Shown piece after piece: positions 5,517 through 58,449 of a DNA stretch of 64,000 nt. How positions within the stretch are numbered: position 1 is the stretch's first letter; each line of letters opens with the position of its first letter. Source of the DNA: Hydrolagus affinis (Eukaryota); the NCBI GenBank assembly GCA_012026655.1, contig JAAILG010000371.1:1-64000 (forward strand), written 5' to 3'. The notes beneath the pieces were generated by a model. It was not told the DNA's origin, ran no database searches, and was given only the letters and a program-made list of their open reading frames with translations. The position numbers and the translations under genes are program-made.

Positions 5517-5614
5517 CCCTTGTAAAAAAGTACCATGGTAGTGGTGGTAGTACCACCATAACTATGGTACTACCATGCTACTACCACCATTACCATGGTA
5601 CTTTTTTACAAGGG
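5517..5614. mobile_element. 98-bp non-autonomous DNA transposon (MITE), CMC/EnSpm-like ends
   Basis: Perfect 24-bp TIR CCCTTGTAAAAAAGTACCATGGTA (about 36 bp with one mismatch), flanked by TG on both sides (2-bp TSD). Confidence 0.8.
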
Positions 5615-12378: not shown

Positions 12379-12620
12379 AAAATGCAAAATACTGCAGATG
12401 CTGGAAATCTGAAACAAAACAGAAATCACTGGGAACACTCAGCAGGTCAGGGAGCATCTATGGAGAAAGGAAAGTGAGGCAACGTTTCGGGTCCACGACG
12501 AAGTCTGACGAAGGATTGTGGACCTGAAATGTTGACTCAGTTTCCTTTCTAGATAGATTCCTTTCTCCATAGATGCTGCCTGACCTGCTGAGTGTTTCCA
12601 GCGATTTCTGTTTTGTTTGT
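12379..12620. mobile_element. Penelope-type inverted-repeat element inserted in a SINE tail
   Basis: About 100-bp inverted arms (aacagaaatcactgggaacactcagcaggtcag... / ...ctgacctgctgagtgtttccagcgatttctgtt); CTGACGA...GAAA core at 12505-12529. Confidence 0.75.
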
Positions 12621-22826: not shown

Positions 22827-23134
22827 AATAATAATAATCATAATCTTTGCTTTTGATATGGCCCTTTTCACATCTTCTGGAAGTCTCAAAGAGCTTCACA
22901 GAATATACTGTAAAGTGAATTGACTATATTTTGTGGGTGAAACGCGGCAGCCAATTCGCATAGCAGTGTCCCACAAAGAGCTGTGGATTGAAATGACCAA
23001 TTTATTTCTTTTGAGGGATTATTATTAGGTGTGTGGACTAAGGAAACTTGCCCAAGGTTTTGCCTTGCCTGGAATTGAACCCAGGTCTCTCGCTTGCAAG
23101 ACGAGTGCTCGAACCACTGAGCTAGAGGACTCCC
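22827..23134 (-). mobile_element. Full-length tRNA-derived SINE with (ATT)n tail
   Basis: Reverse complement begins ggagtcctctagctcagtggttcgagcactc...gggttcaattcc; central tgtgggacactgctatgcgaattggctgccg; L2-like 3' tail. Confidence 0.9.
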
Positions 23135-34003: not shown

Positions 34004-34079
34004 AAATTTATAGCATGGTGAAGAAAGGAAATAGAAGTCCATGGACTTCTATTTCCTTTCTTCACCATGCTATAAATTT
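34004..34079. repeat. 76-bp perfect palindrome without spacer
   Basis: aaatttatagcatggtgaagaaaggaaatagaagtcca|tggacttctatttcctttcttcaccatgctataaattt. Confidence 0.97.
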
Positions 34080-43049: not shown

Positions 43050-43990
43050 TTTTTGCGCGCGTGTGTGTGTGTGTCACCTGGAACGCGGGGTCAGACAAAA
43101 GTCACTGTGCAAAGAAAAAAAAACTGGCAGAACCGACTTTTAAACACGTTAACCACAAGCCTGTGGAGGGGCTCAGAACAGAGAGGATTGAGCTGCTGGA
43201 GACACTCACCGACATAGTGGATGTTGAGCGCCAGGTACTTGTACTGAAAGAGCAGGTTGTTGTTACTCCGGGCCTGGATCTGCTGGAAGAACGAGCTCAC
43301 GTCCCATCGGTACAACATCTCCAGCACCATAATGCTGGGCACCCGCAAGGCCACGTTCAGCACCGCCACCAGCTTCTCCTGCACCCCGCTCATAACGTCC
43401 CTGAGACCGGCCATGGGTGTGAGGTGAGGCCCCCGGGGAGGAGGCGGTGGGGTGGGGGCCTCTCCTCTCCTCGCGGCTTGAGGGAGGGAGGGGGGGGGTG
43501 GGGGGGGACGGTGGACGAGCGAGCGGGAAAGAAAACCTCTTAAAAAGACCGTTTGTTTGCACACTAAGGGAACGGGCCGCGTTTCTCACAAGACATAGTC
43601 CACCCCCGCTCCCCGACACACTCTCCCTATCGCTGGGCTCCCACTCCCCGCTCTGACGTTCCTCTCTCTCTCTGAGGAGCCTCCGAGTGCCTTCAGACCG
43701 CCGCCATTGCTCCGCGCGGCTCACAAAACACTGCGCAAGCGCGGGGGGGGGGGGGGAAAGGCGTCCAGGAATGGGGAGCCACTGCGCATGCGGGGAATCC
43801 AGGACCATCAGCAACCCTGCAACAATGTGTCTCAATGGGGGAGGGGGGGGGTCACGTCAAATTCAGGGGGTTTCACGCCTAATGGGGGGAGGGTGGGTTC
43901 ACACCCAATTGTGAGGGTTATGCCCAATGGGTGGGGGGGCTTGACACCCAATTCAGGGAGAGGGCGGGGGTTCATGTCCAATTTAACCTA
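43050..43990 (-). promoter_or_regulatory. RNF145: CpG island / promoter and 5' UTR of RNF145
   Basis: GC- and CpG-rich against a CpG-depleted background. NRF1-type TGCGCATGCG at 43783-43792 and CTGCGCAAGCGC at 43731-43742; YY1-type CCGCCATTG near 43701; CRE-like GTCACGTCA at 43851; four CCAAT at 43905, 43924, 43948, 43978. Confidence 0.8.
43210..43414 (-). CDS. RNF145: First coding exon of RING finger protein 145 (ER-membrane sterol-responsive E3 ubiquitin ligase, N-terminal TRC8-like region); partial gene
   Basis: Translates MAGLRDVMSGVQEKLVAVLNVALRVPSIMVLEMLYRWDVSSFFQQIQARSNNNLLFQYKYLALNIHYV+G, closely matching the recalled vertebrate RNF145 N-terminus (KEKLEAVLNVALRVPSIMLLDVLYRWDVSSFFQQIQ...FQYKYLALNMHYVG). 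205 bp = 68 codons + 1, ending at canonical donor G|gtgagt. Second in-frame ATG at 43393. Confidence 0.93.
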
Positions 43991-48147: not shown

Positions 48148-48792
48148 GAATAATAATCCTTGCTTTTGATATAGCACTTTTTGCGTCTTCGAGATTTGTC
48201 ACAGCATTTGACAGATTACGATAAAGTGAATTGATTGTATATTTGTGGGCGAATCGCAACAGCCAGGTGTGCATAGCAGTGTCCCACAAACAGTCGTGGA
48301 TTGAATGACCAAATTAAAAAATAAAAAATTCTTGATGGATTATTATCAGGTGTGTGGAGTAAGGAAACTTGCCCACAGTTTCACCCTACCTGGAATCGAA
48401 CCCAGGTCTCTCGCTTTCGAAATGAGCACTCTAACCATTGAGCTACAGATTCTATATAGCAATGCAGCAATGTGGTTTTCATATAGTGATCTTGAGCAAA
48501 TAATAATAATAATCCTTGCATTTGATATAGTGCTTTTTACGTCTTTGAGACATCTCAAAGTGCTTCACAGAATATACTGTTAAGTGAATTGACTGTATAT
48601 TTGTGGGCGAAACATGGCAGCCAATCGTGCATAGCAGTGTTCCACGAACAGTCATGAATTGAAGTGACCAATTTATTATTTTTTTCTTGAGGAATTATTA
48701 TCAGATTTGGAGTAAGGAAACTTGCCCAAGGTTTTGCCCCAGTTCTCTCACTTGTGAGGCGAGTGCCCTAACCACTGAGCTGTAGAATTCCA
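48148..48792 (-). mobile_element. Two head-to-tail tRNA-derived SINE copies
   Basis: Copies at about 48148-48452 and 48498-48792, each with A/B-box head, central domain and (ATT)n tail. Confidence 0.9.
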
Positions 48793-50769
48793 CACTGAAA
48801 AACACGTTTTTGTGACTCTGTTGCCCCTGTGTAGAATTTGCTCAATAGTGTTAGCAGAAGGTCAAGTTATAACCTTCCCATGAGACCCTGCTCTCACCAT
48901 ATCTCAGTGAGCACATTGATGAAGAAAAGGTAAATGGTACAGATTACAGTTTAAAACAGAACAAAACAAGGGCCATACTTGTTCACTATTCACCACTATT
49001 CAATCCTAACCTCTTTGCTGCCTTGAACGAAATCCCCTTACCCGTGACTCTCAGCAGCACAGAAACATTTTGTCTTATGTACATCTCAGTCTGTGTCTAC
49101 TTCTATTTCCTCCAATAATATTCTATAACAGATCCCTATCCAGTTCTTGTTTGAAGGAGTTGCTTTGCTGGAAGTTTGGTCCACATATCAACCAGGCGGT
49201 GAAATAAATGATTTCTTCTCATTCCCAGTCCCTTAGAGGCTTTAATCTTCAAACTACATACTGTACACCACAAACACACTTGGAGAGATAGCCCACTTGG
49301 AAAAAAGATTTGTTTTAAAAACCGCAATAAGCATTCTTTTTAAATGTATGTGAAACTGGCAAGAAGATCGAGAAGGATTTAACTCCACAGCAAGCCCAAA
49401 AGGGTCACTGTTGTGGTTTTGTCTAAAGTGATCAGAATGGGTTGGATGTAGGTATTGGCGTGCTTTATCATGGATGCAAAATTTATATAAGGTAAGGCTC
49501 AATGCAAATTGGATAATAAGCAAATTTCTGACAAAATTTAGCACAGGGACATTGCAGGAAATATAGAAAACTTTCAATAAAAATTGGAAAGAGAAGTTGA
49601 CTTGATATGAAACCAAAACTGCATTCATGAGCAAAGTAAAAAGTACTGTACAGGAAGATGCCAATTTTAGATAGAAAATAAGGGGAAAATAATTAGAGGG
49701 GGCAGAAGAAATATTGAAGATCTGAACAGGAAAGGAAGCACTACAGTTTTGAAGAAGGAAGGAGAGAAAGAGTCCATTGAAGCAATCCAGTATGGAATAT
49801 GCTCTTATCGTGGCATTTTTTTTAAAAACCTATCATGTTGTTTCTAAAATCCCCAACAGCTCCTAGGAATTCCCCAGTTGTAATTTCAAAATTCCCATAT
49901 TAATAATCAAGTTAATGGCGATTTCATCGGCAGTCGGCAAGCCGTTACAATTTAGGCAGAGATGTATATCTGTAGAGCCCTCATCAAATGCATGAAGCAT
50001 TGCATTGCATTGCGGCATCTGTAGATATCTGTAGATATCTGCTTTTAGTGTTTCCGGATGTGGGATAAAGTTGCCTCTTTGAGTTCAGTCCCACCAGTGA
50101 CAATTCCTTAAAAAATGCCTAGGTTCCTAGGACTTCCAAGCTGCTTCTACAGGCCTGTCCTGTAAGATGATTAGAGTGCCCCATCTGGTGGCACAGAAAG
50201 TTCACCCAAAACATCGCAAATTATATATAAACTTTAAATTTGTGTCTGTCTCACTGGGGAGCCATCTCCACAATCCTTCCACTCTTATTGTTTTATGTCA
50301 CATAACTGAGCTTCAGAAGATTTTAAAAAATACCTTGAAGATGTAACCTATTTTAGACATGATTACCACATCCAGTAACATTCTAACTCACCACCACCAC
50401 ACACAACAAATAGAATAACTTTAAAAGTTTGGAACTGTGACATCAGATAGAAGACACAATCAGTTTTTTGGCACAGACTATTTAACTACTGACAATCTTT
50501 CAAAAATAGGTGGGACCTCAAAATGGTCTGTGAATTATTGAGTTATCATGATTTGCCCATGCAAGTATTCATAGAATGTAAAGCAGATTAAGAAGCCTGT
50601 GAGTCAATTTAGGAGTTTCACGGTAACCTTCACCAACATCTACTAGAGGTTGCTCTGCTGTGAAACAGTGGAGTTTAGCGAAGTGATAGGAACATGAAGA
50701 TTACAACAATAATAATAATCCTTGCATTTGATATAGCGCTTTTCACATCAACATCTCAAAGCGTACAAC

Positions 50770-51300
50770 AAGAATAACAACTTGCACTTATATATCGCCC
50801 TCTACACAGGGTGGCATCTTAGAGTGCTAAACAGTCAGGCGATGCCTGACTTCAAGCTGGGAGGAGGTGAACGTAAGCATTATCGAAAAGGAAGGTTTTC
50901 AGATGGGACTTGAAAATGGGGGGAGAGGGGGAAAGGCGGAGGGATTGAGGGGGAGTGTTCTAGAGTTTAGGGAAAAAGTGACTGAATTTGCAACCACCAA
51001 TGGGGTAGTGGAGGGTGTGAGAGATGAACAGAAGTCTGGTACCAGTTGAGTGAAGGTGGTGGAATGGGGATTGAGGAGGTCAGAGAGGTAGGGAGCTACC
51101 AGGGAGTGAAGAAAATTCAACACGAGTATGAGGATCTTGAAGTTGATCCATTCGGTGATGGGGAGCCAGTAAAGCCTGGCCAGAACTGGTGAGATGGGGG
51201 TACAGAGTTTGGTCTGGGTAAATATACGGGCAGCAGCATTCTGAATGAGCTGAATTTTTTGAATAGTGGAGCTGGGGAAACCGGCAAGTGGTGCGTTTGA
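50770..51300 (-). mobile_element. L2 ORF2 3' fragment
   Basis: IQLIQNAAARIFT...ISPVLARLYWLPITEWINFKILILV...APYLSDLL. Confidence 0.9.
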
Positions 51301-51471
51301 GATTAGCGACAGAAGAATGAGCTGGAGTTTGTGCATGATAGAGCTGGCGGAGATCAGCAATGATATTCTGGAGGTAACAAAGGGATATACATACTGTATA
51401 AGGGTTTTAGATACATTAGCCTTGTGATAAGGATGGAGTAATGTAATGTAGCAAAGATGAAGAAAAGTAAA

Positions 51472-51763
51472 CAAAACACAAAATACTACAGAGGCTGGGA
51501 ATCTGAATCAAAAACAAAAGTTGCTGGGGAAACTCAGCAGGTCAAGCAGCATCCATGGAGAAAGGAAAAAGAGTCAACGTTTCTGGTCTGCAACCCTTTG
51601 TCAGAACTGGGGCTTGTTTGGAGGGAGAGGTTTTTAAAGACGTTAAAAACAAACAAGCCCCATTTCTGACGAAGGGTTGTAGACCCGAAACGTTGACTCT
51701 TTTTCCTTTCTCCATGGATGCTGCCTGACCTGCTGAGTTTCCCCAGCAACTTTTGTTTCTGAT
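51472..51763. mobile_element. Penelope-type inverted-repeat element with hammerhead-like cores
   Basis: About 115-bp inverted arms around a short spacer; right arm contains CTGACGA-A-GGGT-tgtag-ACCC-GAAA-CGTT at 51666-51694. Confidence 0.8.
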
Positions 51764-51918
51764 GAAGACAAGTAAACTTGACCACAATTTAGATGTCAGA
51801 AGGGAAACAGCTGAGAGTTGAATAGATGAAAGGTAAATATGAGCCCATGGTGATCTCTGATCTCTGAAAACGCAGCAGCCAATTGTGCTAATTATAGTGT
51901 TTAAGTAATCACACCGTA

Positions 51919-52222
51919 GTGGAGTCCTGCAGCTCAGTGGTTAGAGCACTCATCTTGCAAGCAAGAGACCTGGATTGGCTTCCCGGCAAGGTGAAACCTT
52001 GGGCAAGTTTCCTTACTCCACGCCAAATAATAATCCCTCAAGAAAAAATAATAAATTTGTCACTACCACCCACAACTGTTTGTGGGACACTGTTGTGTGC
52101 AATTAGCTGCCGTGTTTTGTCCACAAACATACAGTCAATTTACTTTAAAGTATATTCTGAGAAATGCTTTGAGACGGCTAGAATACGTGAAAAGCACTAT
52201 ATCAAATGCAAGGATTATTATT
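51919..52222 (+). mobile_element. Full-length tRNA-derived SINE with (ATT)n tail
   Basis: ggagtcctgcagctcagtggttagagcactc head, tgtgggacactgttgtgtgcaattagctgccg core, gcactatatcaaatgcaaggattattatt tail. Confidence 0.9.
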
Positions 52223-56940: not shown

Positions 56941-58449
56941 GTTTTGTAAAATATCAATATAGTTATTGTTGGCACATTTTATTCACATTTTTGCTCCAAA
57001 ATGTTAAATGAATAAACTACTTAGTGATTCAAGTGGGTTGATTATCTCTGGATTGGAACTAGAATTCTTAAGCAAGCCTTTCTTTAAATAGCCCATTACC
57101 TGTGAGGTGAGTATGGTGAAGTAAATAACCCCCCTTTCACTTTAAGAAGGTCCACTGGAGGAAGTACATTGATGATAAATTGTCAGCACCTTTTCCTCAG
57201 CAATTAATCTGTGAGCAGTAAATTAGGCCGTCAAATCAAATGTAAGTTAAAACCATGCAATGAATCGCCTTAATGACTTCAAATGAGCTATCTGACCTTT
57301 CTAAATGAGTCTGTCAGACATCTGTGTTATGTGGCTGAATAAGCGCCCTCGATATGGCCACAGAAATCAGCCATGATTCTTTATTGGCTGAGGATAAGGT
57401 GCTGCCAAGTTTCCAGTCACCAATAGACTTTGAACTCAAAGTGTTGCTCATTTCCATTTTATTTCCATCAGTTCTCAGTTGATGATAGACATTCGATGTG
57501 CAGATAAGTGAGCGTGTGGCCACACAAAAAAAGATGGTCACCGCATTTAACAGCATGTCCTATGAAATGCGATGTCTTCCTGTGACTATACTTTATCGGT
57601 GAACATACAGTCAGTTTGATTACAGTAATGTTCCACATACAGCCATGGAATTAATGACTAATACTGTATAATCTGGGGAGTTGTTGGCGGAATTTGAGAG
57701 CAACTTCCTTCCTGAGTAAGGATCCAATAATAGACAAAAAATAAATAGGAAGAGGCAAAAAAAAATCTTGTTTCATTTGTTTTATTGCAGTGATGTTGCA
57801 TGCAAACTATAATAGTAACAATAGTAATAATAATAAGCCTTGCATTTGATGTAGTGTTTTTCACATCTTCTAGACGTCTCAGATCATTTCACAGAATATA
57901 CTGTAAAGTGAATTGACTGTATTTTTGTGGGTGGAACACAGCAGCCAATTGTGAACAGTGGTGTCCCACAAACTGTTGTTTCTGGAGAGAGACTTTGTGA
58001 GAGGTTCAGAAAGGGAAGGGTGGAAGAGAGTGGTGAAAAAAAATTAAATGCTCCATCTTTAAAATTCAATCTTTCCCCTCTCCTCCACCCCCCCTGAAAA
58101 AATTGTGAGTCCCATAATCTCTTGAGTGTAAGGTGAGAGAGGGTTTGTTTTTTGGGGGGGTGGGGGGTGAGGGGAGAAAGGTTATATGAGCATATGTGAG
58201 TGAGTGAGTGTTGGGTGGGGGCTGGTGGGAGGGATGGAGAGAGGAGAGAGGGTTAAAGTGAAGCCTGAAGCCTGCTCAGCCTGCTCATCATGAGCTGAGA
58301 GAGATCCCAACACAGCTCACACACTGCACATGTATGTATGTGTGTGATTGACGTTATATACCTCAGTTATAGCTCAATGGAAATAGCTCAATGACACTTT
58401 CTTGGGGGAGTGTCATCAGCATTTTTTGGGTGGGACCTCCTATTGTTGA

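Follow-up and report, generated by a model that had tools for sequence, protein, structure and literature searches.

Minimal hammerhead ribozymes (min-HHRs) are known from the pseudo-LTRs (pLTRs) of metazoan Penelope-like elements (PLEs), where they consist of the core boxes, a 4-bp helix I and the palindromic positions 15.2-16.2 without loop 3 (Cervera and de la Pena 2014, PMC4209133). The parts of that paper on which we draw also report that truncated PLEs have left copies by the thousands, solo or on opposite strands, and name fishes, the coelacanth and Xenopus as hosts, without cartilaginous fish; they do not mention copies that start at the 5' edge of the ribozyme. The endonuclease-bearing (EN+) PLEs, as portrayed in the relevant parts of two reports (Craig et al. 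2021, PMC8557442; Arkhipova et al. 2013, PMC3846280), have a single RT ORF with a GIY-YIG endonuclease at its C-terminus, a CX2-5CxxC linker, the CCHH feature, pLTRs, 5' truncation, an adjacent inverted copy, and a tail of 30-40 bp on one end together with a target-site duplication. The role of their hammerheads was stated to be unclear (PMC8557442). PAc, a PLE of the Poseidon clade from the lizard Anolis carolinensis, nicks and extends both target strands in vitro, initiates RT at two internal sites that bound the tail, has its hammerhead upstream and cleaves it with the assistance of protein, while the inserted RNA is uncut (Frangieh et al. 2024, PMC11167929). The two-start-site mechanism in vitro rests on this one lizard element (PMC11167929). 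Non-LTR retrozymes, too, carry a type-I hammerhead in a short animal repeat related to PLE pLTRs (PMC7229834; bioRxiv 10.64898/2026.07.22.740005). Published work thus already covers min-HHRs in the pLTRs of PLEs as well as opposite-strand pairs, tails and duplications, and it is against this background that a locus of Hydrolagus affinis is compared here.

The window, i.e. the whole stretch of 64,000 nt that was analysed, contains on its plus strand at 51666-51698 the sequence CUGACGA, A, GGGU-UGUAG-ACCC, GAAAC, GU, U, GACU. All the parts named by the sequence-only reading (both catalytic boxes, a 4-bp stem II, the ACGU palindrome and a GUH cleavage site) were read in this interval. The box pattern CTGANGAN{6,30}GAAACGT matched once within the window, with 0.01 matches expected by chance. 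A profile search with Rfam gave no hammerhead match at E<=1 for the whole window or at E<=10 for 51645-51720, so the basis of the identification is the motif together with the family to which it belongs. The features of the locus are the following:

51456-51472, plus strand: target-site duplication, left copy, 17 bp; its last 5 nt overlap the end of the left arm
51468-51647, minus strand: left arm, a 5'-truncated, tail-bearing pLTR, element positions -44 to +136; 95.6% identity to the family reference over 181 nt
51471-51506, minus strand: PLE tail of about 35 nt, in the left arm only
51572-51608, minus strand: minimal hammerhead with intact stem I, G8 changed to A (51599) and the first stem II pair broken (51584)
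51650-51761, plus strand: right arm, a 5'-truncated, tail-less pLTR, element positions -16 to +95
51660-51666, plus strand: CCATTTC, the counterpart of CCAGTTC in the family, which resembles an initiator; the 5' ends of the family pile up here, at a likely RNA start
51662-51698, plus strand: minimal type-I hammerhead with CUGACGA (51666-51672), extra A (51673), stem II (51674-51686), GAAAC (51687-51691), GUU (51692-51694), and stem I (51662-51665/51695-51698) with a U/C mismatch at 51663/51697
51761-51777, plus strand: target-site duplication, right copy, 17 bp, identical to the left copy at 16/17 positions

Element positions are counted from the C of CUGA as 0 (51666 in the plus arm, 51604 in the minus arm), which places the predicted cut at +28/+29 and, judged from the motif, that of the plus-strand hammerhead between 51694 and 51695. 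In the plus copy H17 is U (GUU), the ACGU palindrome is present, and stem II can be drawn with 4 bp or alternatively with 5 bp, a U.G closing pair and a GUA loop. Stem I of this copy pairs as A-U, U/C mismatch, U-A and U.G, whereas the family has G at the mismatch place; the weak stem I that had been noted before is due to this mismatch. The opposite arm had been described as carrying a mutated core, and the minus-strand box is indeed CUGACAA (G8 to A), with G.A as the first stem II pair. As far as the sequence allows a prediction, the minus-strand hammerhead at 51572-51608 should be dead through loss of G8 and the plus-strand copy inactive through its broken stem I, in agreement with the suspected inactivity.

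The locus is one head-to-head insertion of approximately 290 bp with a 17-bp target-site duplication. Since this duplication flanks the pair of arms, both arms arrived in one event. The arms form an inverted repeat (51502-51620/51650-51768) of 119 nt with 93% complementarity, and along 51650-51758 (109 nt) the right arm is 99.1% identical to the family reference. The span first proposed, 51640..51720, does contain the plus-strand hammerhead but only part of the right arm, and the insertion with its duplication extends over 51456-51777. Each arm is shorter than 200 nt and the insertion carries no ORF. The cores lie on opposite strands, so one transcript cannot contain a dimer; in addition, the RNA reading through the repeat is predicted to fold at -212.7 kcal/mol into a long hairpin whose stem includes the core, and together this excludes a dimer in cis at the locus. 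The two arms differ at two family-variable sites, +59 and +93, a minority pattern that fits either later mutation or two templates. We regard the locus as an ordinary insertion that was likely dead on arrival.

Several other features were observed in the window. A second head-to-head insertion (12379-12618) belongs to a sister subfamily with a GUGG loop, shows 83% and 73% identity to the element and contains an internal re-copy in its right arm. Just left of the insertion, 50899-51507 (minus strand) is an open frame with the look of a C-terminus and without a Pfam match, which we take to be a LINE (L2/CR1-like). A coding exon at 43094-43585 (minus strand) with a weak TRC8_N match (E 2.2e-5) resembles the start of RNF145; relative to this exon, the insertion is situated some 8 kb upstream. 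An abundant tRNA-derived SINE ending in (AAT)n is present at 51919-52222 (both orientations) and 48149-48793, with tRNA-like matches at 23060, 31186 and 48381, and we assume this SINE to be of the Deu-domain type. Finally, near-perfect short palindromes are found at 34006-34077, 5517-5614 and 58071-58178, and they draw low-score Rfam miRNA matches.

In the genome assembly (1.11 Gb) the exact core has 1,078 matches (control 0), a 30-mer downstream of it 2,907 (control 0) and a loose box pattern 4,708 (control 197). The family therefore comprises at least 2,907 copies, in which at least two subfamilies are visible. Seven of the best 30 DNA matches extend upstream into the endonuclease region (L005, 007, 010, 016, 017, 026, 028), and two near-duplicate loci among these 30 reach the last codons of the endonuclease. 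Conversely, when loci were picked by protein, 18/20 had the hammerhead-region pLTR about 270 nt after the ORF, the other 2/20 ending at a contig edge. At loci containing the ORF start, leaders connect the hammerhead with the ORF's start, and two loci (L081, L099) display a partial pLTR with tail, then the ORF, then a pLTR. Because the repeat forms one continuous unit with an RT + GIY-YIG ORF, it represents the pLTR of a PLE of the autonomous type. An intact full-length element was not found among 19 long stretches, and the ORF copies seen were all broken.

The Pfam matches of the ORF, RVT_1 (E 1.5e-6) and GIY-YIG (E 2.2e-4), both lie just under the curated cut-offs. Its linker is CQRRRCNTC (CX4CxxC), two Cys lie inside the GIY-YIG motif, and the endonuclease contains YCIRCSRCGLLYIGE followed by two His-bearing motifs, which corresponds to the CCHH feature. 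Judged by these motifs, the element appears to be of the Neptune type, with a signature that is common to Nematis. The named relatives of highest identity to the ORF protein are shark and ray proteins (58-64%), which points to a cartilaginous fish as the likely host. All the EN+ PLE features listed at the beginning are shared by the family. The differences are that a strict rule of one tailed arm per pair and the number of variants pointing to a shared template are quantified here, that the insertion in the window is without an ORF, and that the Neptune placement is a tentative one by motifs. Taken together, the motif and a family with an RT + GIY-YIG ORF bear out the attribution to a Penelope-type minimal hammerhead: we are confident that the motif is a minimal type-I hammerhead in the pLTR of an abundant RT + GIY-YIG PLE, and that the locus is a short head-to-head insertion which is likely dead.

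The region before the ORF shows some further peculiarities. The ORF likely starts at about +168, whereas in PAc the ORF starts inside stem II (PMC11167929, in the part cited). The leader from +48 to +168, the first part of which is present in the window from 51714 on, contains two upstream ORFs of 4 and 37 codons. It also contains a branch-point/pyrimidine/CAG acceptor ending at +101, which adjoins the first RT start site. At 10/30 ORF-start loci (L272-L300) the copy begins at +84..+107, so that the ORF is preceded by the tail alone; such leaders resemble the ancient Penelope copies flanked by 34 bp, as far as these are described in PMC2377424.

The ribozyme was also compared across the family. 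In the family consensus, stem I can pair over 4 bp and the cleavage site is of the NUH type (GUU). Stem I (A-U, G-C, U-A, U.G) pairs in 78/86 arms, the first pair being U.G in 74 and C-G in 10, and it is pairable in 38 of the 39 long copies. The core is intact in 41/86 family arms, with losses mostly at CpG sites. In 144 copies, which were found by their boxes, each of the five stem II pairs is kept in 137-139, and for the fifth, 96 copies have U.G and 39 have C-G; the extra A before stem II is present in all 144, H17 is U in 142 and ACGU occurs in 96. Among these closely related copies the stems show one-sided changes only, and no two-sided compensatory change was seen, so that the support which these changes lend to the stems is weak. 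For the monomer, the energy model predicts an off-pathway rod with mispaired boxes (-9.3 kcal/mol, vs -6.7 kcal/mol with stems I and II formed). A GUU site is cleaved more slowly than GUC. With the published min-HHR the family shares the boxes, the extra nucleotide before stem II, G10.1-C11.1, the ACGU palindrome without loop 3 and the 4-bp helix I, and it differs in that helix II has 4-5 bp as compared to 7-8 bp in Schistosoma and in that H17 is U (PMC4209133, in the passages cited).

The repeat had been taken for a small, non-autonomous and retrozyme-like family. As a separate retrozyme, its tandem hammerhead units would be cleaved into monomers, which would then form circles and insert anew. 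The short copies, which number in the thousands and have ends in common, do give the impression of a mini-family, since many copies are discrete units of about 100 or 135 nt, and animal retrozymes derive from PLE pLTRs and are known in a chondrichthyan (bioRxiv 10.64898/2026.07.22.740005, in part). This idea is nevertheless highly improbable: the ORF lies on both sides of the repeat, there are no tandem cores, and ends at the cut are rare. Specifically, no two same-strand cores within 1 kb of each other were detected in 60 three-kb loci (0/60), in an assembly of 245,464 contigs in which collapsed arrays are possible, and only 2/95 arms among the matches listed have their 5' end at +27..+31. 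The 3' ends of the copies are near +97 or +133 and not at the cut site, and the hammerhead is of the minimal PLE type as opposed to the canonical type of retrozymes (PMC7229834, as far as cited). Thus the family, in the copies sampled and unlike the non-LTR retrozymes, is without tandem units and cut-bounded monomers and is continuous with a coding element.

A related explanation is that the unit from -4 to +133 is a SINE-like non-autonomous element, with solo copies that keep an internal promoter and the RT starts and are re-copied in trans. Promoters of PLEs are indeed internal to the pLTR (PMC2377424, in part), and solo copies have target-site duplications of their own, with scores >=8 in 10/24 tailed and 3/9 tail-less ones against 11/600 controls. 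We nonetheless consider a SINE-like unit improbable. The short (71) and the ORF-linked (36) copies share the same variants and have similar divergence (4.5% and 5.0%), which also speaks against a separate retrozyme. Further, the ORF-linked leaders stop at the same edge, and the lizard PLE depends on RNA past the second RT start, which is missing in the solos (PMC11167929, in the part consulted).

For mapping of the ends, 95 arms were picked by a pattern outside the ribozyme from the top of the list of 2,907 matches. Their 3' ends are bimodal, 42 falling into +86..+108 and 53 into +129..+145; these two classes, separated by about 35 nt, correspond to the PLE tail. Of the 5' ends, 37 are located at -6..0, 14 at +1..+9, 17 at +10..+52 and 27 upstream of -6. 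This amounts to a stop rate per base of 0.083 at -6..0, vs 0.004-0.005 in +10..+52 and -60..-7. Genome-wide, the apparent ends of 4,594 copies with intact -3..+11 are at -3 (1,116), -4 (792), -5 (664), -6 (299) and <=-7 (1,723), where inspection by eye indicated that a substitution in a longer copy explains 5-13 per 100 listed at -3..-5 and about one third at -6, and where CAG microhomology at inverted junctions accounts for some of the apparent -5 ends. Six independent leaders at the 30 ORF-start loci reach the ribozyme (four loci with one shared flank were taken as one); four of them stop at -2..-6 and two continue upstream.

The base preceding the copies was counted by hand. Before A-4 it is G in 48/100, with 27-32% expected (p 5e-6 to 6e-4), while before G-3 it is G in 33/100, with 29-33% expected; in the arms starting at -4 (n=61) it is G in 31, A in 22 and T in 8. 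In full-length L1, an extra G at the 5' junction marks copying of the cap (PMC11702581, in part). A lone cap-derived G anchored by a duplication was found in none of 11 usable solos, six of which have fillers of 2-6 nt, three ending in G. The family sequence at -6..0 (CCAGTTC) fits what we take to be the initiator consensus, YYANWYY. In our judgement, the proposal that the 5' edge of the hammerhead is also the 5' end of the RNA has a little better than an even chance of being correct. Our literature search returned no account of a 5' pile-up at the hammerhead edge in the titles and abstract openings covered; Lunse et al. 2017 and Arkhipova et al. 2017 may bear on it.

RNA reads (polyA single-cell, three runs of one sample under another organism code) showed no pile-up of molecule ends at -4 or at the cut. 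Over the ORF the same reads lean towards the sense strand, and loose ends occur at -3..-5. Such ends mark the limits of genomic copies contained in host transcripts and are therefore not evidence of expression or of the RNA start. Run X1 may have supplied the assembly and is not independent. Splicing into the CAG at -5..-3 or into the strong acceptor at +99..+101 was also considered, and no such joint was present among the RNA-read joints listed. As a separate observation, in L220, L228, L262 and other copies the first 7-12 nt are re-copied and stacked before copies starting at -3/-4, as if RT had jumped back after the end of the template.

The inverted pairs give information on the insertion itself. 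One tailed and one tail-less arm were present in 62/62 pairs, and the 5' ends lay inside in all 37 pairs checked for geometry. Target-site duplications scored >=8 in 32/38 inverted insertions, against 11/600 shuffled pairs. The arms have 99/127 non-CpG minor alleles in common (15.5+/-4% in shuffled pairs), which indicates that one RNA or one source locus served as template for both; since only 6/38 CpG changes are common to both arms, they were not homogenised later. We had also considered two different RNAs in one dimeric particle; the arms share variants far above chance, and only RNAs from the same locus would fit.

The pairs could alternatively have arisen by self-priming, in which the same element would form its arms through fold-back, the 5' pile-up representing an RT stop or a splice acceptor (the CAG at -5..-3). 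For PLE repeats in head-to-head orientation, self-priming has been put forward before (PMC3846280), it predicts the shared template of the arms, the apparent 5' ends are spread over -6..0 and thus over more than one base, and in D. virilis helix I marks the end of an intron (PMC4209133; both papers in part). We find this explanation rather unlikely, although clearly less so than a retrozyme or a SINE-like unit. In 22/37 pairs (counted by hand) the tail-less arm reaches further 5', and a simple fold-back of the tailed cDNA is thereby excluded unless a deletion occurred. Copies starting at -2 have no common upstream exon (7/7 differ), an RT stall at the hairpin would be expected at its 3' side (+33) and not past it, and the G excess before A-4 is absent before G-3.

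Priming on both strands is the mechanism that we favour. A wider reading, towards which we lean only slightly, is that the thousands of short copies represent leader cDNAs that ran off the template end. The capped RNA would begin with the first base of hammerhead stem I (A-4/C-5), and RT would start internally at +97 or +133 and fall off at the cap. The ribozyme, as the first 37 nt of the mRNA, would be copied uncut and could act only by cutting off a capped leader of about 33 nt, and the head-to-head pairs would record two-strand priming in vivo. In the mechanism of insertion, the endonuclease of the element would make a staggered cut at the target, and both target strands would prime RT on the element RNA at internal sites near +133 and +97. 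At the locus in the window both cDNAs would have stopped early (at -44 and -16) before they were joined. Both arms extend beyond -5, and hence the insertion here was copied from the pLTR located downstream in a longer transcript, which would be the ORF-bearing one. In the parent element, the 37-nt hammerhead would likely be located at the very 5' end of the RNA, where it could cut only as a dimer or with the help of the element protein. If the templates of insertion are mostly uncut, cutting would have its effect outside insertion, for instance in taking off the capped leader. We thus infer two-strand priming, an RNA start at -4/-5, uncut templates and a ribozyme that depends on a dimer or on protein.

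Similar features are known from PAc and from L1. In PAc, likewise, two RT starts bound the tail, both strands are primed, the hammerhead lies upstream and uncut RNA is inserted (PMC11167929, in part). Twin priming of L1 likewise leads to inverted insertions with a clean duplication, and there is a G excess at the 5' junctions of copies extending to the RNA end; the L1 arms, in contrast, copy adjacent and nearly non-overlapping stretches, while the arms described here copy one stretch from two fixed starts (PMC11702581, in part).

The genomic ends described here yield positions that can be tested, namely an RNA start at -4/-5, RT starts at about +97 and +133 and an unused cut at +28/+29. They concern a PLE clade other than that of the lizard element. 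If the proposed reading is true, the ribozyme would be a self-limiting switch of the element and not a step in the processing of its insertions.
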